Positions 1-11,639 of a stretch of 11,639 nucleotides of DNA are shown piece after piece. Within the stretch, counting starts at the first letter, position 1, and the number at the start of each line of letters is the position of its first letter. The stretch covers positions 1-11,639 of the forward strand of contig NW_021826928.1 in assembly GCF_006345805.1 (NCBI RefSeq), given 5' to 3'. This DNA comes from Octopus sinensis (Eukaryota). A model generated the notes under the pieces. That model was not told the origin of the DNA. It saw only the letters and a program-made list of their open reading frames with translations, and made no database searches. The translations under genes were made by a program, and so were the position numbers.

Positions 1-207
1 TATTTTTTTCAGAATTTGCATTTCCTTTCCAGCTAAAAGGAATTATTGTTTTGTTAAAAATTAAATCAATCTAAACAACTTATATACCATCTCTAAGCAA
101 GCACATCATATTTACAATGCTTGGAATATATTATCGAGAGAAATGAACGTTACTCAAGTGTATATAAAGGTTTTATATACTTGATATATACACTTGATAT
201 ATATATA

Positions 208-620
208 GGCGCTGGAGTGGCTGTGTGGTAAGTAGCTTGCTAACCAACCACATGGTTCCGGGTTCAGTCCCACTGCGTGGCATCTTGGGCAAGTGTCTTC
301 TGCTATAGCCCCGGGCCGACCAATGCCTTGTGAGTGGATTTGGTAGACGGAAACTGAAAGAAGCCTGTCGTATATATGTATATATATATATGTGTGTGTG
401 TGTTTGTGTGTCTGTGTTTGTCCCCCTAGCATTGCTTGACAACAGATGCTGGTGTGTTTACGTCCCCGTCACTTAGCGGTTCGGCAAAAGAGACCGATAG
501 AATAAGTACTGGGCTTACAAAGAATAAGTCCCGTGGTCGATTTGCTCGACTAAAGGCGGTGCTCCAGCATGGCCGCAGTCGAATGACTGAAACAAGTAAA
601 AGAGGAGAAAAAAAAAAATA
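208..620 (+). mobile_element. tRNA-derived SINE, family A, apparently full length
   Basis: Pol III A box TGGCTGTGTGG (218-228) and B box GGTTCAGTCCC (261-271). CORE-like CTTGGGCAAGT segment, internal (TA)n(TG)n at 371-420, 3' GCTCCAGCATGGCCGCAGTC tail and A-rich end. Two more copies at 11178-11290 and 11462-11639. Confidence 0.9.
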
Positions 621-1321
621 AAGATTTTGTCAACTTATTGTTTTATGAAATACAAAATTGAAGAAAGTAAGCGAGGAAACTAACAGAGCCAGCATGGGAA
701 AGGAAAAAGAGGCTAAGTGAACGGCAAATTTGATAAAAGTTAAACGATAGTTAACGTATATATGCCATATTACTTGATATAAAACAGAGTGACAAAAGCA
801 TGCTTTTTAAGTTATTTGTCATAGGACGGGTAATACACTAGTATGATGAATATTGCCTAATACTGTGGTATTTATTCAGTTCTTTTTACAGTCCTGACAT
901 CATTCTAATCGACAACACAGCTTACCCATAAAAGAATGTATAAACATTGTAACAATAATGGAAATCTGGACAGGCCTTACATCATATACTTACAGCACAA
1001 TTGTCATAAATACCTTAATGATGTTGTATTTATCTACTTTTTGTTCATTTTTCAAAGTGCTCCAGTACCACCGTTGACGTGCATGTGTGGTTAAATACAA
1101 CGAAATGTTTATATGTTTCTACATGTAAATCAAAACAGCCGTGATCACTATGCATATCTCTTCCTTTCTCCTTCCTGTATCCAATTTCTCACTTCTAATA
1201 CTTCCTGATTATGTATGCAAGCTCACGTTGATTCACGTTTCCCATCTTCTGCAGTCAGTTCCTCAAACATAGAGGATATACAACTTTGCTATTTTTCTTT
1301 TATTTCCTTTCTGTCACCTTT

Positions 1322-1354
1322 TCCTTGAAGAAGGACTTTATCCGAAACGTTGGA
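1322..1354 (+). ncRNA. Minimal type I hammerhead-like motif (PLE type, C3U variant)
   Basis: tcc-TTGAAGA-A-GGA cttta TCC-GAAA-CG-TT-gga. Helix I tcc/gga, helix II GGA/TCC, palindromic helix III ACGT. Preceded by a pyrimidine-rich tract. Confidence 0.55.
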
Positions 1355-1841
1355 TACTCCATTTATCACGACAATTTCACTAGGCACTTTGGATCTGTTT
1401 TATATGGAATGCATGTATAAGTGTATGAATGAATATGCATACGCATGTATGAATATAAGTATGTTTATATGCTTATATGTATGTGTGAGTGTGTATATGA
1501 GCTATAAGCGTGTATCTCATTACTGGATCGTCGAGAAAACCTTTTTTCAAATATTCTCCTGCTGTAACGATTCCATAACCTTACTCAGATATACTATATC
1601 CAAGAATAGGTTATGCTGAATGTCCTTTCTTTGATAGAGACTTGGCTGCTATTTCAAGTAGAGGCTCTTTCTTTGGGATTTTCACAAGCAGCAGTGTATG
1701 TAGCAGAGAGCTTGCACACATTTTTCTCTGTCTCGACTTTGAAGCCATATGCCACAAAATTGCGATTGGAGATTGAGAAAATTCTCCTGTAAATGTACGT
1801 AGATGTGTCTTAACCAGCTCAGCTATTAATATAATATCTGT

Positions 1842-1922
1842 CACACACAAACACCACACACACACACCACACCAACACAACACACCACACACCACACACG
1901 CACACACACACACACACACACA
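1842..1922. repeat. Imperfect (CA)n/(CACAC)n microsatellite
   Basis: Directly visible CA-rich simple repeat. Confidence 0.95.
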
Positions 1923-1986
1923 AGTTTTTATTTTTAGGGTTATATTATTTGACTGTCGCTGTGTTGGAGTACTTCTTTCTAATATA

Positions 1987-2212
1987 TATTTCTCTACTGC
2001 CCTGAAGGGGCTAAACATAGAGGGGACAAACAAGGGCAGACAAAGGGATTAAGTCGATTACATCGACTCAGTGCAAAACTGGTACTTTATTTATCGACCC
2101 CGAGAGGATGAAAGGGAAAGTCGACCTCGGCGGAATTTGAACTCAGAACGTAACGGCAGACGAAATACGGCTATGCATTTCGCCCGGTGTGCTAACGATT
2201 CTGCCAGCTCGC
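1987..2212 (-). mobile_element. tRNA-derived SINE, family B monomer
   Basis: Reverse complement of 4807-5033 at about 90% identity by eye. A box-like TGGCAGAATCG, B box-like GAGTTCAAATTCC, central GGTCGACTTTCCCTTTCATCCTCTCGGGGTCGATAAATAAAGTACCAG domain. Confidence 0.9.
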
Positions 2213-2231
2213 GGATTCCAACCATTTCATT

Positions 2232-2330
2232 ACTTATTTTACTGACCTTAGAGGGATGTAATGCGAACAGTCCTGGGAGGAATTTGAACTCAGAATCTAA
2301 AGCTCTTTTGTCCAACGGTCTATCAATTGC
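2232..2330 (-). mobile_element. Old degenerate family-B-related SINE head/core fragment
   Basis: GGAATTTGAACTCAGAA is identical to the adjacent copy; the flanking sequence is a decayed match to 2084-2212. Confidence 0.7.
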
Positions 2331-2447
2331 GCAGTCAATCTAACATTCATACATATACTCCTACATATATATCCATCCATCTATACACACAGACTCGTAG
2401 ACATATGTACTTACTAACGTACGTAAACCCACACACGCACCCTCGCC

Positions 2448-2530
2448 TATATACTTATATATATATATACATACATTTATATATATGTGTGTGTGTGTGT
2501 GTGTGAGTGTACGTATGTATGTATGTATAC
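2448..2530. repeat. Compound (TA)n/(TG)n/(TATG)n microsatellite
   Basis: Directly visible. Confidence 0.9.
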
Positions 2531-2763
2531 GGATAGACATGGATACATACATAAGTTCATGCGTAGACACCCGGCGTGAACAGACGCAAACTTTAACGTA
2601 GGAGAGTATTCATTGAATTTTCGACAATATCTATTCTCAAACAATAATGGTACGACTACTACCTTTACTAAATAACTGCTTATTCTTCTGAAGACATTTG
2701 CTAAATCAACCTTTTATTCAACGTCGTAGTGGTACATGTCTGAAACTTGCATTCACCTTGCAG

Positions 2764-2836
2764 AGATGCGTTACAAGCAACAGGCTGGACACAACAATAG
2801 CGACACCGGAGGAAAGAAGAAACGGTATTGTAAAAG
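2764..2836 (+). CDS. Candidate internal coding exon (73 nt), product unknown
   Basis: Acceptor attcaccttgcag| and donor AAG|gtaaat. Two open frames: RCVTSNRLDTTIATPEERRNGIVK or MRYKQQAGHNNSDTGGKKKRYCK. No homology recognised. Confidence 0.4.
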
Positions 2837-3167
2837 GTAAATTGTAATTATAGAAGAAACTGAAACAAGAAAACACATTTTCTTAGAGTAGAACTCAATA
2901 ATGACTTATATAATTGCTATAAAATGGCAAAAGGTTCCCTCGGCTATGTGAATTGAATGACAGTCTACTGAGACGAACTTCACTCAGAGTTGAAGTATTT
3001 CATGAGAAAACTGTTACGCTAACAGGCAACATTTGCTGAACATAGGAAAAGCGTTGATGAATGTAGTTCTACACCCCAAAGTACGAAGAGTACAGTAGGT
3101 GAAGTAAATTCCTGGAATACATATGCGGACTCTACGTGTGACAACAAATCTGATTCTAATTGCTGCT

Positions 3168-3551
3168 GTTGCTGTTGTTGTTGAGCGAACGGTCTTCGTC
3201 CCAGAGCTCGCAAGATGGGAGAAGTCCGAAACGTGGTCCTTTGCTATTCGTAAGACCCGCGGAAAGAGAAAGCAGGTCAACCGCCGACACCGAGAGCATC
3301 GACGGATGGATGAATGCGCATCCAGGCTCAGCGGTTGCGTAGGAAGTCGGGGACAAGAAACAGGAAGAAAGATTGAGAGAAAGTTGGAGCGAAAGAGTAC
3401 GACAGGGGTCGCTACCACCCCTTGCCGGAGTCTCGTGGAGCTTTAGCTGTTTTCGCTCAATAAATACACACAACGCCCGGTTTGGGAATCGAAACCGCGA
3501 TCCTCCGACCGCGAGTCCGCTGCCCTAACCATTGGGCCATATCGCGTCCAC
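3168..3551 (-). mobile_element. tRNA-derived SINE, family C, full length, with 13-bp target-site duplication
   Basis: The minus strand starts with a tRNA-like head (A box TGGCCCAATGG, B box GGTTTCGATTCC) and ends in a (CAA/CAG)n tail. Exact direct repeat TCTAATTGCTGCT at 3155-3167 and 3552-3564. GC- and CpG-rich. Confidence 0.92.
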
Positions 3552-3578
3552 TCTAATTGCTGCTATGTTCCTTTGCAG

Positions 3579-3663
3579 TAAGCCTCATGTTTCATATCCA
3601 ACTGCCAGTGACTATAGTAGCAACCACGATAATAAGTATATTACTATGAGGTGGGAAGAATAG
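3579..3663 (+). CDS. Candidate exon (85 nt) containing a stop codon
   Basis: Branch-like CTAAT (3553-3557), acceptor atgttcctttgcag|, consensus donor TAG|gtaagt. Spliced to 2764-2836 it reads VSLMFHIQLPVTIVATTIISILL* (stop 3647-3649), or in the other frame SKPHVSYPTASDYSSNHDNKYITMRWEE*. Confidence 0.42.
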
Positions 3664-4044
3664 GTAAGTAATTGTAATTTATTCTTAATGAAATACTTCA
3701 AGAGAAGATTTTTGTTTTGACACACCAGGTACAAGGTAAGCTTTACCTGATCAGCGTTGATAAGAGACGCAGTGAGTTGATGTCGTTAATGATTTATGAT
3801 ACAGATACGAAATATTTATAAAAAGACTCATATCACTTCATTTTGGCGAACATATTCCTATTTATATGCGCTTTTCACAACTGCTTAGCAGTATCATGAG
3901 GACAATACACAAAGCCAGAACATTAAAAAAAGTTGCATGCCATTATTGATCTATTGAAGACTAGCATTTATGTGGCGATACTACATGTACGTAGGCAAAT
4001 AATTACGCTTCTCTGCTGCAAAAATTGAAAAATAAATAGAAATG

Positions 4045-4580
4045 ATGTTTGGAGATCGTAAAAACGAAACGCTTGAAGTTTCGCTCTGATACACGCAAAC
4101 AGGAGTTTGAGGGTGTCAGTGACAAACGCTGATAACAGATGTGAGTCTCTAAAAAAGAAAGGCCTTAAGAATTTTCAGTGAAAATCAATTAGCAGTCTAC
4201 AGAGATATGAGAAAGAGAGTGAGAGAGAGAAAGAGAAAGAAAGAAATAGAATAAGAGAGAGAGAGAGGGAGTAAGAGAGAACAGGTAATAAAAATGACAT
4301 TGACCCATTTTCAAGAGCCTAAGATTCATCTTGGAGAAAAAAAGGAGTTTAACCTGAATACAGTGTGGCTAGAAGGTACCGAAAAAAATGTAAGAGGAAA
4401 AGAATTGTGGCTACTGCAGGACAGGAAGAGAATTGATTGATAGTTACTGATGCAAAAAAAAACAAAAAAAAAAGAAAGAAATTTGACCATCTCATTGATC
4501 TTTGTTAGCAAGCACTCAATGTTTGGCGATAATAAAAACGAAATGCTAGAAGTTTTGCTCTGATACACGTGAACAGGAGT
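4045..4580 (+). repeat. Dispersed 62-bp direct repeat pair (4045-4106 and 4519-4580)
   Basis: 54/62 identical, ungapped, 474 bp apart; weaker similarity continues about 50 bp downstream of each copy. Confidence 0.85.
4201..4280. repeat. Imperfect (GA)n purine tract
   Basis: Directly visible. Confidence 0.85.
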
Positions 4581-4805
4581 AAATATACTAATGACTGACA
4601 TTGGTAGAAATGAGTGATACTAAAAGACAAAACACACACAAAAATCAAAAATGAACAAACAAAGAAAACTGCTCACATGGCCAACAATTACTGACCAAAA
4701 GCGAATGCAGCCTGTCTGAACTTATTCCTCCAGGATTACCGCGAAAGTAATAATACCGTTGCAGTTTAAGGAGCATCGGGGAAGAAGGGAGTTTACAGAT
4801 ATATT

Positions 4806-5218
4806 GGCGAGCTGGCAGAATCGTTAGCACGCCGAGCGAAATGCTTAGCGGTATTTCGTCTGCCGTTACGTTCTGAGTTCAAAATCCGCCGAGGTCGACT
4901 TTGCCTTTCATCCTTTCGGGGTCGATAAATTAAGTACCAGTTACGCACTGGGATCGATGTAATCGACCTAATACCTATGTCTGTCCTTGTTTGTCCCCTC
5001 TGTGTTTAGCCCCTTGTGGGTAATAAAGAAATAGGTATTTCGTCTACCGTTACGTTCTGAGTTTAAATTCCACCGTAGTCGATTTTGCCTTTCATCCTTT
5101 CGGGGTCGATTAAATAAGTACCAGTTACGCACTGGGGTTCGATACAATCGACTTTATCCGTTTGTCTGTCCTTGTTTGTCCACTCTGTGTTTAGCCACTT
5201 GTGGGTATTAAAGAAATA
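4806..5218 (+). mobile_element. Family B SINE with tandemly repeated 3' unit, inside one target-site duplication
   Basis: Head 4806-4849, unit 1 4850-5033, unit 2 5034-5218 (about 89% identical). AGATATATTG occurs at 4797-4806 and 5218-5227. Confidence 0.92.
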
Positions 5219-5925
5219 GATATATTGTGTTACTTCTAAACAACAAAACTGTCAAAATAGCGAAGGGCAGCTGAAATTTGGTTTGAACTTAACTGAAGAC
5301 CAGAAATGCACATTCTGATATGTTGCATATTCAGATCAGTTGTAACAAGATTGCAAATGAAAGCAATTCTACTTGTCATCAGAAGGTCATACATGGTGTT
5401 GCTCAACGCGCGGTCAAGTCTTCATGAAGCATTTTAATTTTCAAGTCAATTAGTGTGGTAGCAATAAAGCCACTTCGAACTGAATTGCAAGATCGAACTT
5501 CTAACGGAGCAGCTGCCCCCACGCAAAACTATAGCACAGATTTGTGTAATATATATAAAAAATATCGTTCATTTAGCAGCTTGTTATTGTAAACACGCAA
5601 ACTCACACATACACAAATGCACACATTCATACACTTACGTGCGCTCGCAACCCCTGCACAAACACGCACAGGTGAGCACATAGGTGCCAAACAAATTAAA
5701 AGAAATAGCACACGATCGTCAACTTCACAAATCATCACTCAAAGATTTACGGAACCGATTCTCAGGCTCTCTGAACTGCCTGATGAGCGGTTACGCACTG
5801 AGTTAAAACTCATTTATCGTCCGGGTTGGACGATAAATAATATTCCTCTACCGGTATTGATTCTTCCTTATTTCTCTTCTTTTCTTTCACCCTCTCTTTC
5901 TCTCAGTCTCTTTGCCTCTCTTGCC

Positions 5926-6167
<242 letters not shown>

Positions 6168-6275
6168 CTGAAGATTTTCTATTTTGGATATATTTGGGGT
6201 ACTTAGGTCTGCTCAGGACTTAGTGTTTGCTTTTTCCATAGGTATGAGTAAGTATTTCATTTATGTCTTACGTAT

Positions 6276-6336
6276 TTATCGCTGACGAAGGGAAAATTCT
6301 TATGAATTAACCCCGAAATTGGGACCAATACGGTAA
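6276..6336 (+). ncRNA. Type I hammerhead ribozyme motif (PLE type), core intact
   Basis: ttatcg-CTGACGA-A-GGG aa aattc ttat gaatt aac CCC-GAAA-ttgg ga ccaa-TA-cggtaa. Helix I 6 bp (one G-U), helix II GGG/CCC plus aattc/gaatt, helix III Attgg/ccaaT. Predicted cleavage after A6330. Confidence 0.8.
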
Positions 6337-6604
6337 TAACAGAATTTTTTAGAAATTTCTATCGGCATGTTTCGGGACGCATAAATTATAATGGTTATTG
6401 ACAATTTTGTCTTTTTTTCGGCATATTTGGCATTATAATTTTTCTTTTGCCCTTATTTTACAAGTTATTTATATATTTTAACCTTTAAGGGTATTTTTTG
6501 ATATGCTGGCCATTGATAAAATTTGTTTTCGAGAAAAAAATTTATCGTTTTACTCCTGCTGTTCTATATGGTGTTTCGACTAACTTCATTCCGTATTTTG
6601 CATT

Positions 6605-6696
6605 TACTTTTCGTTTTCTTTCTTTTTTTCTTGCATTCTTGTTCGCTTTCTTGCTTCCCTGCTTTCTGATTTTTCTAATGTCGTTTCTTTTTTCGT

Positions 6697-6732
<36 letters not shown>

Positions 6733-6797
6733 ACTCCTTTCTTCTTTTCCTTTCAGTCACTTTTCTTCTTATCTCTCCTTTCCTTTCTTTCTTTCTT
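6605..6797. repeat. T/C-rich low-complexity tract with (TTTC)n
   Basis: Directly visible; the source of the F/L/S-rich ORF. Confidence 0.9.
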
Positions 6798-7058
6798 ATA
6801 ACATCGACTCTATTTCATATTTTATCGATTCAGGAAAAGAAACGAAAAGTGGAACTGAGCTGGATTTGAACGCAGGATATAAGAAGATGAAACCAAATAC
6901 CAGAAGGTACACTGTCGAACGTCCTAACGATTTTTGAAGCCAACCCAGTATAATACACGTACACATACACATGTGTGTGCCTATGTGTTTGTGTGTCACT
7001 GTGTAGGTATATATGTATAATTCACTCTCTCTGTCTGAATTTATATGTATAAGTATTT

Positions 7059-7060
<2 letters not shown>

Positions 7061-7100
<40 letters not shown>
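7061..7100. repeat. (AC)20 microsatellite
   Basis: Perfect dinucleotide run. Confidence 0.98.
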
Positions 7101-7104
<4 letters not shown>

Positions 7105-7195
7105 TGTGCTGAAAAGGTCTTGGCTCTAAGGGTGCCGTGAAAGCCCGATCAGGGGCTCAAACTTCCAAATACTTTTACAGGGCTTAAAAAAATGA
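7100..7195. mobile_element. One end of a mariner-derived non-autonomous element (fragment)
   Basis: Begins CGAGGTGTGCTGAAAAG, resembling the mariner TIR pattern TA-CGAGGGNNGNCTGAAAAGT (recalled). No partner TIR in the window. Confidence 0.5.
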
Positions 7196-7822
7196 TGTGT
7201 TTAATCCTTGCCCGCATGAAGAAAGTACATTCTATCGTACCTGCGCGACTCACCATGACTGTAACTACGGTTCCCCTGCCTCGACCTTCTGCAAACGACC
7301 TTACACCAATGTCCTTGGGACCAGCATAAAGAGTTTGACCAAGACACGCACCAATGCACCCAAGTAGACATACGTACACTCCCATAAGGCAGACACCCCG
7401 CAGTTAACTATCCCTCCAAGCACATACTTCAAATGCAAATTATAACCCCACACAAATGCATTATACATTACACATTATACTTTATACACCGCACGCTAAT
7501 ATATACTCCCCATCCAACTTTACAATTTACAGAAAGAAAACATAATGAACACAGTGTTAGGTATGTTTACACCCCCAGAAAAGTTTATACATATAACATC
7601 GCTACACACACCACACACCCATCCTTACAGAGTAACCACATTAATAAAAACTTTCCCCACTCCTATGTTGACTCTTGCTGGCTCCACAACATAGCTAATC
7701 AAAGGACATAACTCCTAGTAAAATGCCCTGGGTCTTTTTTCATTTCACCACCTTTTTACAGCAGATGCCGACCGGTCGTGCTAATCCATCGCCAGCAGTG
7801 GAGAGCAGTCACCATATTCTTT

Positions 7823-7943
7823 TCCATGTCGGCTACATCTGATGAACGTATGTATATAATTAGTTTTATATAATTACTTTGTTGCTTAACACTTCACTGT
7901 ATTTTTTGCGCGAAATCAATTGGTGAAGACCATCCGAGATGGA
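7823..7943 (+). ncRNA. Degenerate hammerhead-like motif with long helix II insert
   Basis: CTGATGA at 7839-7845, GAAA at 7912-7915, near-palindromic ATCAATTGGT, distal stem tccatgtcgg/ccgagatgga (9/10 pairs). The cleavage-site base is G and proximal helix I is broken. Confidence 0.4.
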
Positions 7944-8215
7944 CACTTAACACTACAAAATTCGGATAATATATATATATATATATACACACAAAGTATG
8001 GGGGTTTAGTTCACAGGTGATCTAAATGATCAAGTACGCTAAGTAAGTGCTGTAACGTATTACTAGGGCTCCAAGGTTATAGCTGAGATTGTAGTTATGG
8101 AGTCATTGCTAATTTCCGATGCAGCAGATATAAAATTGTTAAACAAGACAACAAACCTTAAGGCAAAGCAAACATCTCAAGTCGTATACAATATTATTAT
8201 AGGAAAAAATTCTAA

Positions 8216-8271
8216 ATCTTACAGCTGTTTCTGGAATATCCCCAAGTATGGAATATATCGTCGTCAGAGAC
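8216..8271 (-). ncRNA. Type I hammerhead motif, left arm of the palindrome
   Basis: Minus strand: gtct-CTGACGA-cgatatattccatacttggggatattcca-GAAA-CAGCTG-TA-agat. Helix I gtct/agat, palindromic helix III ACAGCTGT, GUA cleavage triplet; base of helix II imperfect. Confidence 0.75.
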
Positions 8272-8605
8272 AAATAAGGAAAAAAATAGGGAAAATGAGA
8301 ATGGTATATATTAATAAAATAACGACAGAGAGGAAGAAAGTAAAAGAGTAAGGAGATAGAAAGAAAGAAGGAAAGAGACGCATAAACGTTCATAGTTCAA
8401 TTTTCCGAAGTTATAGAAATCAGAGCATGAGACCTTAGATGCAATCCTGCGTAGATTGATGAGAGTAAGTCAGGATTTTAACCCCCATAGATCTACACAG
8501 GATTGCACCTGCTCTGACTTCCATAACTTCGGAAAGTTGAACTATGATCTTTTATGCTTATTTTTCTTCTTTCTTTCGTATTCTTCTCATTTTCCCTACT
8601 TTTTC

Positions 8606-8656
8606 CTGATGACAGAATATTTGTACTCGGGGATATCCCAGAAACAGCTGTAAGAT
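8606..8656 (+). ncRNA. Type I hammerhead motif, right arm (5' strand of helix I lost)
   Basis: CTGATGA-cagaatatttgtactcggggatatccca-GAAA-CAGCTG-TA-agat. An ~11-nt deletion relative to the left arm removes the gtct strand. Confidence 0.65.
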
Positions 8657-8742
8657 TTTGAATTTCTTCCCATAACAATATTGTATACGACTTGAGATGT
8701 TAGCCTCGCCTTAATGTTTGATGTCCTACTTAACAATTATCT

Positions 8743-8765
8743 ATATATATATATACATATATTAC

Positions 8766-8817
<52 letters not shown>
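8743..8817. repeat. (TA)n microsatellite
   Basis: Directly visible. Confidence 0.97.
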
Positions 8818-8820
<3 letters not shown>

Positions 8821-8963
8821 GTTATATTTAGGAATGGTCATTTTGCCAGTTTAGCCAATAAAAACAACACGCACCATATATTTGGAGTTACTTTGCTTCA
8901 CCAAATATATAGTGCGTGTGTTTAATTGGCTAAACTGGCAAAATGACCATTTCTAAATACAAC
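8821..8963. mobile_element. Near-perfect 143-bp hairpin, MITE-like
   Basis: Arms 8821-8885 and 8901-8963 differ by 4 mismatches and 2 single-base indels; 15-nt loop; lies between TA arrays. Confidence 0.8.
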
Positions 8964-9011
8964 CATGTTTGTTTCAATACACGATTTCACATAAAAAATC
9001 TTGTACAACAA

Positions 9012-9155: not shown

Positions 9156-10027
9156 CAGGGTGCAGTGAATGAACTGTCGTCTAAATTACGCTAAAATGAA
9201 AATAACACTGACTTCTCATTTTAAGATATATTTACCAAAAGGCACTTGATGTAGGCCCCCGAATCGAGTATGAGGCCGTGTGGGAAGATGAATGGATGCA
9301 TAACGTCGCCATCACTAATGATCACTTAAAACTCCATGATATTGACTGGAAATTTGATTTTTTCACACTCGGTACATGTTTTGGGGTCACAGTAAGTCAA
9401 CGATTGCTCTTTGTGTTCACCGTCTCATCCTGACAGAAATTTTTATCGTCTGAGAAAAACTAAAGTATGTTCGGTTGCAGGGGTTGCTTCAGTTTTCTCA
9501 AAAGCTTCGTAGCACGGTCTTTCCTCTCATCCTCAATAGCTTAGAATAAAAATAGGCCCTTTCTCATCTTGCATGAGGAATACCGAATGTCTTCATGCAT
9601 TACCTACCTGATAAGAAACTTAGACACTCCCATGTCTCTGGCGATGGTCGTCATTGACTTGAAGGGGTTCTTGTCAATCTTGACCAGGTGCTCTTTTCTT
9701 ATCAGAACGATCGGAGTGTGTTTTCCGAGCTGCCGTACCTTCGTAATCACCATTAGCCTCACCCAACTCTTGCCGAATCTTCTGCACTGTTTTTGACACC
9801 AAAACAGTCTGAAAGGTTCGTGTTGGAGCTTCCGGTGCGAATACCAAGCAATACAGCATGTATTTATCAAATTTCTGGCAGAGTGAATTTCGTCATGGAG
9901 CTGTTTTTTCTAACAGACGGTGCCCAACTGACCCTACTATACTGTGTAGTTGACAAAATCAAAAACAAACAATTTGCGTGCACAAAATTAAAAAATATAG
10001 TGTCGACCATATAGCCATTGCGGTCTG
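9156..10027 (-). mobile_element. Internally deleted Tc1/mariner DNA transposon
   Basis: TA|CAGGGTGCAGTG at the left end; degenerate reverse-complement TIR CATTGCGGTCTG|TG at the right end (about 16/28 matches). Contains a transposase remnant. Confidence 0.85.
9240..9896 (-). pseudogene. Tc1/mariner transposase pseudogene (HTH region plus first catalytic Asp)
   Basis: Across two frameshifts and several stops: MTKFTLPEI**IHAVLLGIRTGSSNTNLSDCFGV / KTVQKIRQELGEANGDYEGTAARKTHSDRSDKKR / IDKNPFKSMTTIARDMGVSKFLIR*VMHEDIRYSSCKMRKG...IL*FFSDDKNF...KFPVNIMEF*VIISDGDVMHPFIFPHGLILDSGAYIKCL. FSD(E/D)K is the first DDD/E motif. Confidence 0.9.
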
Positions 10028-10729: not shown

Positions 10730-11040
10730 CGAAATTTAAGGCAGTGGAGCAGGTAAAATCCGATCTACATATGTTTCCTAGATAGTATATCCTCTGATGT
10801 AATATTTACTCAATGAGGGATACTCAATTACTCAGCTAGCTACACATATGGCTGAAGATACCTTAACGGCAATAGGATTCCTTAACGACGATGTAACCTT
10901 CACATAATTAAGGTATCTCTGGCCTGCTGATTAGCTAGCTGAATATTGCTCGTTAAGTCCTTATTAGATCAGAGGATATGCTAGCTAGGAAACATACGAA
11001 GCCTAGTTTTTACCTGCTCTACTCCATCAATTTGGTTTTT
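10730..11040. mobile_element. About 310-bp old imperfect palindrome with a decayed hammerhead in each arm
   Basis: Arms ~10730-10866 and ~10908-11040 (e.g. GAGCAGGTAAAA/TTTTACCTGCTC, ATATCCTCTGAT/ATCAGAGGATAT, GATACCTTAA/TTAAGGTATC). Confidence 0.85.
10921..11003 (+). ncRNA. Decayed type I hammerhead, right arm (mirror copy at 10763-10853, minus)
   Basis: ggc-CTGCTGA-TTAGCTAGC...GCTAGCTAG-GAAA-CATACG-AA-gcc. The left arm supplies GAAA-CATATG-TA and A6, so the two arms combine to a canonical CTGATGA...GAAACATATGTA core. Confidence 0.55.
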
Positions 11041-11177
11041 TATTCGCATTCATAACAACACAAGTTGCTAACCGTGAGTTATAAATTTTAAAAAAATCTT
11101 TCAGCTTATCGAAATTCAATATGGGGAGAATCCCACAAAGTTTGACGCCAAAGAATTATTATTGCTCCTGAAAGTTG

Positions 11178-11290
11178 ACTCACAAGATTTTGGTCGAACC
11201 GAGGGTAGAGCAGAAGGTACTTGCCCAAGATGCCACGTAGTGGGACTGAACCCGGAACCATGTAGTTGGGAATTTCTTTTCTCACAGTCA
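11178..11290 (-). mobile_element. Family A SINE, 5' fragment
   Basis: The reverse complement contains CATGGTTCCGGGTTCAGTCCCACTACGTGGCATCTTGGGCAAGT, matching 251-294. Confidence 0.88.
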
Positions 11291-11461
11291 AACCTTCACC
11301 GGTAAAAAAGTGGCTAGAATCGAACCCTATACCTCTGAAATTCTGTATGAGCGCTTGTACCATTAAGATAAACGGCCATTGATATTTATACACACGCACA
11401 CACACACACAACACACCCACACACACACACCCACACACATACGCACAAATAAATGTTCATA

Positions 11462-11639
11462 GGCGCAGGTGTGGCTGTGTGGTAAAAAGCTTGCTTCTCA
11501 AGCACATGGTTCCAGGTTCAGTCCCACTGTGCGGCATCTTGGGCAAGTACCTTCTACTACAGACTCTGGTCGACCAAAGCCTTGTGAGTGGATTTGGTAG
11601 AGTGAAACTTAAAGAAGCCCATCGTATAGATATATATAT
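11462..11639 (+). mobile_element. Family A SINE, cut by the window edge
   Basis: Colinear with 208-385, including A box, B box and the start of the internal (TA)n. Confidence 0.9.

Follow-up and report, generated by a model that had tools for sequence, protein, structure and literature searches.

In a contig of Octopus sinensis (NCBI RefSeq assembly GCF_006345805.1, NW_021826928.1), a long palindrome with almost no spacer carries a hammerhead motif in each arm, which raises the question whether the palindrome is a mobile unit in its own right or the product of another element's insertion. The window, that is, the whole stretch of DNA analysed here, comprises 11,639 nt of AT-rich sequence dense in microsatellites. 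An earlier note on this DNA had proposed an ORF-less head-to-head pair of Penelope-like element (PLE) terminal repeats with minimal hammerheads, and had likened it to a MITE. The first part of that proposal is supported by the arms, the motifs and the contigs of the repeat family described below. With a probability of about 0.8, we consider the locus to be a head-to-head pair of truncated, hammerhead-bearing repeat copies with a one-sided extension, made once and long ago by a Penelope-like insertion between (TA)n tracts. The palindrome, its motifs, the abundance of the family, the extension, the run of family sequence beyond the centre and the TA flanks are observed; a parent PLE with its ORF and the priming route are inferred components of this explanation, and the silence of the ribozymes is a prediction.

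For the repeat family, assembled contigs from 4 of 24 runs were matched to positions 7640–8740 at a likeness of at least 80%, and gave 7673 contig pieces, of which 32 were listed. The listing also covered 15 of the 128 joints, 24 of the 1164 loose ends and 12 of the 41 linker rows.

The palindrome and its hammerhead motifs

Self-alignment confirmed an imperfect inverted repeat of 617 nt (8128–8744; Table 1). When the arms were aligned (8128–8466 against 8481–8744), 224 of the 264 paired columns were identical (85%), and the 75 gap columns fell mainly into gaps of 12, 44, 7 and 10 nt, each consisting of letters absent on the right-arm side. The predicted fold of 8128–8744 reached –279.5 kcal/mol, compared with –118.9 ± 6.5 kcal/mol for shuffled sequences (z = –24.85; 0 of 20 shuffles equalled it). 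The long, nearly spacer-free inverted repeat is thus real. The extent first given, 8134–8738, is too small for the element: contig matches carry the repeat family leftward at least to 8001. ADAR hyper-editing was considered for the arm differences, 16 of which have A in the left arm and G in the right as against 4 of the reverse kind, and was rejected, since the polarity is mixed in what is a small, selected subset. Nine of the 16 sites have a family row; at these the derived letter lies in the left arm 4 times and in the right arm 4 times, with 1 mixed case, which gives no one-directional A-to-G signature.

Table 1 Features of the insert and its flanks
Feature	Position	Strand	Description
(TA)n tract, left end of insert	7968–7987	.	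Seen in the sequence; likely part of the insertion target
One-sided 3' extension	8001–8127	–	Beyond the left arm only; at least 127 bp, up to ~140 bp; tail-like
Left arm	8128–8471	–	Family copy truncated at its 5' end, with the minus strand as sense; arm alignment and gapless collinear family contigs over 8260–8470
Left motif, minimal type I hammerhead	8216–8271	–	Helix I GTCT/AGAT, core CTGACGA, extra C, putative GTA cut triplet
37-bp unit	8435–8471	.	Present twice in tandem elsewhere in the family; the left arm ends after the first unit
Head-to-head junction	8470–8471	.	Two 5'-truncated copies, spacer-free, apparent 2-nt overlap; left-arm contigs match to 8471, right-arm contigs from 8470
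Right arm	8470–8744	+	Family copy truncated at its 5' end, with the plus strand as sense; internal deletions make it the shorter arm; arm alignment
Right motif, degenerate	8602–8656	+	CTGATGA and GAAA-CAGCTG-TA retained; 5' strand of helix I gone; fails the descriptor
(TA)n array abutting the right end	8738–8817	.	TRF period 2, 41 copies

Both arms hold the core boxes CUGANGA and GAAA, a NUH cut triplet, a C-AGCT-G palindromic loop 3, an extra unpaired C after the core and an extra A before GAAA. The two cores are ~340 bp apart on opposite strands and face outward. Their positions are those that the earlier note had given (CTGAYGA..GAAA-CAGCTG-TA on the minus strand at 8216–8271, and a plus-strand core from 8606), with the difference that the motifs are not at the tips of the palindrome: they sit ~90 bp inward of the arm ends. 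In the left motif, which reads CTGACGA..GAAA-CAGCTG-TA on the minus strand, the core begins at 8267, helix II has 8 of 10 pairs, an extra A stands ahead of GAAA, loop 3 contains the palindromic AGCT, and the predicted cut site lies after 8220. In the right motif the core begins at 8606 on the plus strand and helix II retains 7 of 10 pairs, with the first pair (G-C) broken; accordingly, the G10.1-C11.1 pair is present in the left arm and absent from the right. The GTCT/AGAT helix I, which agrees with the 3–5 bp and U-rich upstream flank of metazoan PLE hammerheads, is found in the left arm and in the family majority, not in the right arm.

We scored the motifs with our own type I hammerhead descriptor, which was written after the motif had been seen. 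It matched the window twice, at 8267 on the minus strand and at an unrelated site at 6282 on the plus strand, against a mean of 0.02 matches in 300 dinucleotide shuffles (at least one match in 4 of 300, at least two in 2 of 300). The two motifs are thus unequal: both arms hold the core boxes, only the left motif passes the type I descriptor, and the right one fails at helix I. The suggested check against hammerhead models did not support the motifs, as Rfam reported no hammerhead among its 52 matches in the window or its 4 matches in 8190–8300; the matches in or near the element were below-threshold miRNA-type hairpins. The published PLE hammerhead consensus runs U-rich, CUGANGAH, G..C helix II, GAAAN, palindrome, NUH, AU-rich (PMC4209133, supplement 2). 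With the exception of the extra A, the left motif agrees with the consensus line in Fig. S3 of Cervera and de la Pena; the text of that figure contains one 'AGAAA' box, in a row that is not assignable (PMC4209133).

The family form of the motif was read from contig loose ends. At 8624 the majority consensus kept GTCT-CTGATGA in all 4 runs (42, 23, 3 and 48 contigs; among the 24 of 1164 loose ends listed), and the majority letters, counted by eye, give helix II 9 of 10 pairs. The motifs of both arms have thus decayed from the family form. A reading frame passes through the left motif (8139–8396, minus strand); a Pfam scan of this frame gave no match, and the family-majority letter at 8213 gives a stop directly after the motif. 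The 3' strand of helix II at 8630–8639 is, in the right arm and in the family majority, a perfect 10-base palindrome, GGGATATCCC, and could form a second dimer contact beside AGCT.

Predicted folds of 7990–8744 on either strand buried the motif in the arm duplex, paired with its antisense copy, as expected from the earlier proposal that fold-back would silence cleavage on either strand. Because each strand's transcript carries just one sense motif, a cis dimer, the arrangement that such motifs presumably need, cannot form. On both grounds the ribozymes are predicted to be silent passengers. Minimal PLE hammerheads are described as having low in vitro activity even as dimers (PMC4209133). We also scanned viral and metagenome contigs for the motif, which returned 2 and 31 loci, respectively; 0 of the 33 were blastn-similar to 7988–8744 (E 1e-3), and all 33 were dismissed as chance, since by inspection none combined a hammerhead-like helix II with helix I.

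The repeat family and the central junction

The contigs matching 7640–8740 numbered 2644, 1655, 46 and 3050 in the four runs and were mostly less than 95% alike; contig depth does not equal copy number, and summed depth was not used. Judged from these matches, the arms derive from a repeat family that is abundant and old and may already be catalogued in repeat libraries (Repbase, Dfam). In the run guessed as RNA, 36 of the 46 matching contigs were less than 90% alike. The left flank (7640–7861) is itself a lower-copy repeat matched by many diverged contigs, and in the putative RNA run 188 nt of it (7660–7847) are matched exactly.

The family spans at least 127 bp beyond the left end of the palindrome, its matches starting at 8001; the earlier note had overlooked this one-sided extension. 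Seven of the 32 listed pieces cross 8128 with at least 31 letters on each side, 5 of them gapless and all four runs represented. The 24 of 1164 loose ends listed show no accumulation of family ends at 8128. Family depth is near zero over 7862–7972 and very high from 7973–8009 on; as 7962–8000 was skipped as repeat, the left end is approximate. The whole insert, ~7990–8744, thus consists of extension, arm and arm between two (TA)n tracts, which would mask any target-site duplication. Over ~480 bp the family sequence has no ORF and contains simple-sequence and 37-bp tandem parts. A joint leading from 8471 back by 37 to 8435 was seen in one contig each of runs X3 and X17 (among the 15 of 128 joints listed), and 13 contigs of X17 had loose ends behind 8471, with a consensus similar to the sequence from 8435 onward. 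A Pfam scan of 16 of the 30 listed window ORFs found no match to RT or GIY-YIG, and short motifs of the element are absent from the supplements of PMC8557442 (1 file) and PMC4209133 (all but file 1).

These properties bear on whether the family has a full-length parent at all. It could instead be a non-autonomous short retroelement with a hammerhead, retrozyme- or SINE-like and mobilised in trans by a PLE, in which case the inversion would still be insertional; we regard this as unlikely. The great abundance of the family, its lack of an ORF over ~480 bp and its simple-sequence and 37-bp tandem parts would suit such an element, as would the reported origin of retrozymes as pLTR derivatives (bioRxiv 10.64898/2026.07.22.740005). 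Like the animal non-LTR retrozymes (PMC7229834; bioRxiv 10.64898/2026.07.22.740005), the insert is ORF-less, AT-rich, PLE-related and equipped with a type I hammerhead. Those retrozymes, however, are built of head-to-tail repeats that permit dimer cleavage and circles, whereas the palindrome is head-to-head, which precludes both. The window holds no head-to-tail unit of retrozyme type (150–450 bp, each with a type I hammerhead), the family runs past the centre of the palindrome by up to 231 letters, and in having a long helix II the motif follows the minimal PLE type and not the canonical retrozyme type (PMC7229834).

We then consider the centre. Eight of the 32 listed pieces stop at 8452–8470, of which 5 continue for 70–231 letters unlike the right arm and 3 just end; in X3, a loose end with a median of 81 nt precedes 8470 in 10 contigs. 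From the loose ends and the run-on sequence, the family continues past both inner ends of the arms. Since family copies run past 8470/8471, both arms were cut from longer sequence, at different points. The junction itself was bridged by 1 of the 32 listed pieces (X3 record 24; 8388–8585, 198 nt, 1 difference). The depth of this contig is 6.35, that of the remaining listed X3 contigs 5.08–8.28, and by its sequence we read it as the same locus as the palindrome.

Nine other joints lead from left to right on the same strand among the 15 of 128 listed: 8026/8679, 8056/8624, 8069/8529, 8070/8525, 8072/8519, 8200/8634, 8203/8704, 8206/8687 and 8438/8525. Each was found in one contig where a count is given, with sides of 23–29 nt where given and with short or no linkers in several; joints at 80% likeness with sides shorter than 30 nt are often spurious, and the nine are weak singly. 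We read them as probable traces of other head-to-head insertions with other junctions. The X17 joints 8069/8529, 8070/8525 and 8072/8519 have near-identical positions, with linkers of 34, 17 and 5 letters. The stretch 8072–8083 resembles 8405–8416, and an inversion hot spot or a subfamily feature is possible. Joints labelled as opposite-strand at the mirror positions 8207/8666, 8282–8286/8624, 8374/8563 and 8417/8525 were discarded, being single copies that match one arm and then the other.

The symmetry might also have arisen from two independent insertions, separated in time, back to back in one TA tract, or from later DNA fold-back or gene conversion. The 15% difference between the arms, with its large indels, would agree with this, and so would the short helix I leader of the right arm, which is seemingly common to other dispersed copies. 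Such an origin is nevertheless improbable: between the two 5' ends lies neither TA nor a host remnant, and the listed joints include several more of the head-to-head kind with a short spacer or none, which is what a routine insertion product would give.

It is very improbable that the palindrome moves as a unit, either MITE-like or as a hairpin retro-unit. The strong fold (z –24.85) is in line with such a unit, TA on both sides would also suit a Tc1/mariner-type TA target, the junction is present in a separate run labelled as another organism (X3 record 24), and 32 of 7673 pieces were listed, so that shorter diverged contigs bridging 8470/8471 could be hidden among the pieces beyond those listed. 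Yet the sole listed bridge is one letter off at ordinary contig depth, as expected of the same locus; diverged copies depart from the reference at 8452–8471; the one-sided extension means that the ends are not terminal inverted repeats; and the other inversions have other junctions. Many copies with the same junction and symmetric termini, which would mark a MITE or mobile palindrome, were not seen among the 32 listed pieces. Although the insert shares with MITEs and foldback DNA elements a long inverted repeat, the absence of coding sequence and TA flanks, its arms exist as longer monomers, its ends are asymmetric and its junction is unshared among the listed copies. The mobile MITE-like unit of the earlier note is thus not upheld, the junction occurring in 1 of 32 listed pieces as a one-difference match. 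A junction private to this locus, which the same note had named as evidence against its proposal, is largely what the 32 of 7673 listed pieces display. A literature search by title and start of abstract, with subscription papers mostly outside its scope, found no hammerhead palindrome moving as a unit.

Palindromes between microsatellites are liable to mis-assembly, but a fold-back read or mis-join is practically ruled out here because 198 nt of an independent run span the junction with a single difference, and because the arms are just 85% alike with large indels.

A probable Penelope-like insertion

The insertion reading draws on a published anatomy. Endonuclease-positive PLE insertions are described with an inverted 5'-truncated copy, a one-sided tail of 30–40 bp and microsatellite targets (PMC8557442), and the head-to-head arrangement is given as the commonest among PLE copies (PMC3846280). 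At this locus we see 5'-truncated inverted copies and, at both ends, (TA)n as a likely microsatellite target. The insert resembles the pLTRs of Penelope/Poseidon, Neptune, Naiad and Hydra in that its copies are inverted head to head and truncated unequally, that the extension is confined to one end and that (TA)n masks the target duplication; it differs in that its extension measures at least 127 bp and not 30–40 bp, and in that both copies are truncated ahead of any ORF. As Naiads are reported to be without canonical hammerheads (PMC8557442/PMC3846280), the clade is, on this comparison, more likely Neptune, Poseidon or Hydra than Naiad. The divergence between the arms falls in the range of an octopus PLE expansion reported at ~0.2 divergence (PMC13282606). 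Several points count against the insertion reading: the length of the extension relative to the published tail, the absence of a listed accumulation of family ends at 8128, the unreadable target-site duplication, the negative RT and GIY-YIG result for 16 of the 30 window ORFs, the negative Rfam result, and the extra A before GAAA, a deviation from the consensus core.

Dual minimal hammerheads on opposite strands, 100–700 bp apart, have been read as truncated PLEs in Schistosoma mansoni (Cervera and de la Pena 2014, PMC4209133). The octopus palindrome shares with them two opposite-strand minimal type I motifs, a long helix II, a short helix I, an unpaired base before helix II and a palindromic loop 3. 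Unlike the S. mansoni set, it belongs to a different sequence family, has the extra A before GAAA in both arms and is known without an associated ORF.

The mechanism that we propose is taken from the Poseidon element PAc of Anolis. The PAc protein, a predicted dimer, introduces nicks into both strands of AT-rich DNA, the tail is defined by two RT start sites that lie downstream of the hammerhead, and hammerhead cleavage is dispensable for insertion in vitro (Frangieh et al. 2024, PMC11167929). The PAc ORF starts at helix II, whereas the frame 8139–8396 has no Pfam match. By analogy, the GIY-YIG endonuclease of the octopus element would have nicked both strands of an AT-rich target, and reverse transcription would have been primed at each nick in the 3' region of the element's RNA. 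One cDNA would have begun at ~7990 and the other at the point equivalent to 8128, which would give the one-sided extension. Both cDNAs would have halted early at unequal places and been joined at 8470–8471 across a 2-nt overlap. The copy has decayed after insertion. The same product could also have come about by self-priming on an antisense template, as proposed in PMC3846280.

This anatomy of insertion is already published, and in the light of these comparisons the stub is a known kind of genomic debris and no new mobile unit. The palindrome had been correctly recognised as Penelope-like, but it is an ordinary decayed fold-back stub, and, taken alone, it is of little importance. It does call for caution in annotation, since such stubs mimic MITEs or miRNA hairpins. 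With a family of this abundance, fold-backs could supply much long double-stranded RNA if they were transcribed.

We further considered, as a tentative and rather doubtful possibility suggested by sequence comparison, that the two arms were copied in one insertion event from separate RNAs belonging to two subfamilies. An 11-nt helix I leader is missing from the right arm, and the left arm has the long form; upstream of the right-arm core, the loss can be resolved into one base and 11 nt that lie between two CT repeats. In X3 record 19 the net change is –11 over 8182–8352, so that this record is without the 44-nt gap, and in X17 record 11 it is –10. Also in X17, a loose end of 12 contigs behind 8256 (agreement 0.64, median 11 letters) matches the leader-less form. 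Net lengths of this kind, for which gap positions are not given, suggest that the 11-nt leader loss is common to other dispersed copies. The pattern could also stem from deletions recurring at the CT repeat, from gene conversion or from two insertions. One-template and two-template models of PLE inversion could be told apart by arm pairs that come from different subfamilies. If mixed pairs proved common, PLE inversions would be made by a dimeric enzyme priming two templates and not by a single RNA folding back; a subfamily with a crippled hammerhead would have spread nonetheless; and fossil fold-backs would let genome sequence alone test how PLEs build inverted insertions.

Other elements in the window

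A further, unrelated type I hammerhead motif lies at 6276–6336 on the plus strand (CTGACGA, helix II, GAAA-TT-GGGACC-AA-TA, helix I of 5–6 bp) and passes the descriptor. This motif, the match at 6282, stands ~110 bp after a TA tract (6100–6164), with a splice-donor-like AG/GTATGAGT at ~6240. It looks more intact than either arm motif and is likely the terminal repeat of another PLE family.

Two more palindromes were observed. The first, at 8821–8963, directly follows the TA array, has arms ~86% alike (84% by self-match) and a one-sided extension of ~48 bp to 9011, lies between TA tracts and is without a hammerhead core; it has a below-threshold Rfam miRNA match. In sequence, 8821–9011 would fit a fold-back stub with a tail, of another family. 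The other, at 10730–11043, is older, with 105 of 136 paired columns and a ~40-bp spacer, and directly follows a TA tract.

ORF fragments at 9545–9909 resemble a decayed Tc1/mariner transposase; they had no Pfam support, and a PDB search with ORF 9604–9909 gave nothing below E 0.1. A short interspersed repeat is present in three copies 85–90% alike, at 1981–2212 (minus), 4807–5039 (plus) and 5034–5223 (plus), two of them partly tandem; it resembles an octopus SINE, and no tRNA genes were called in the window. Another dispersed repeat has three copies, 83–87% alike, at 205–385, 11178–11272 (minus) and 11459–11639.
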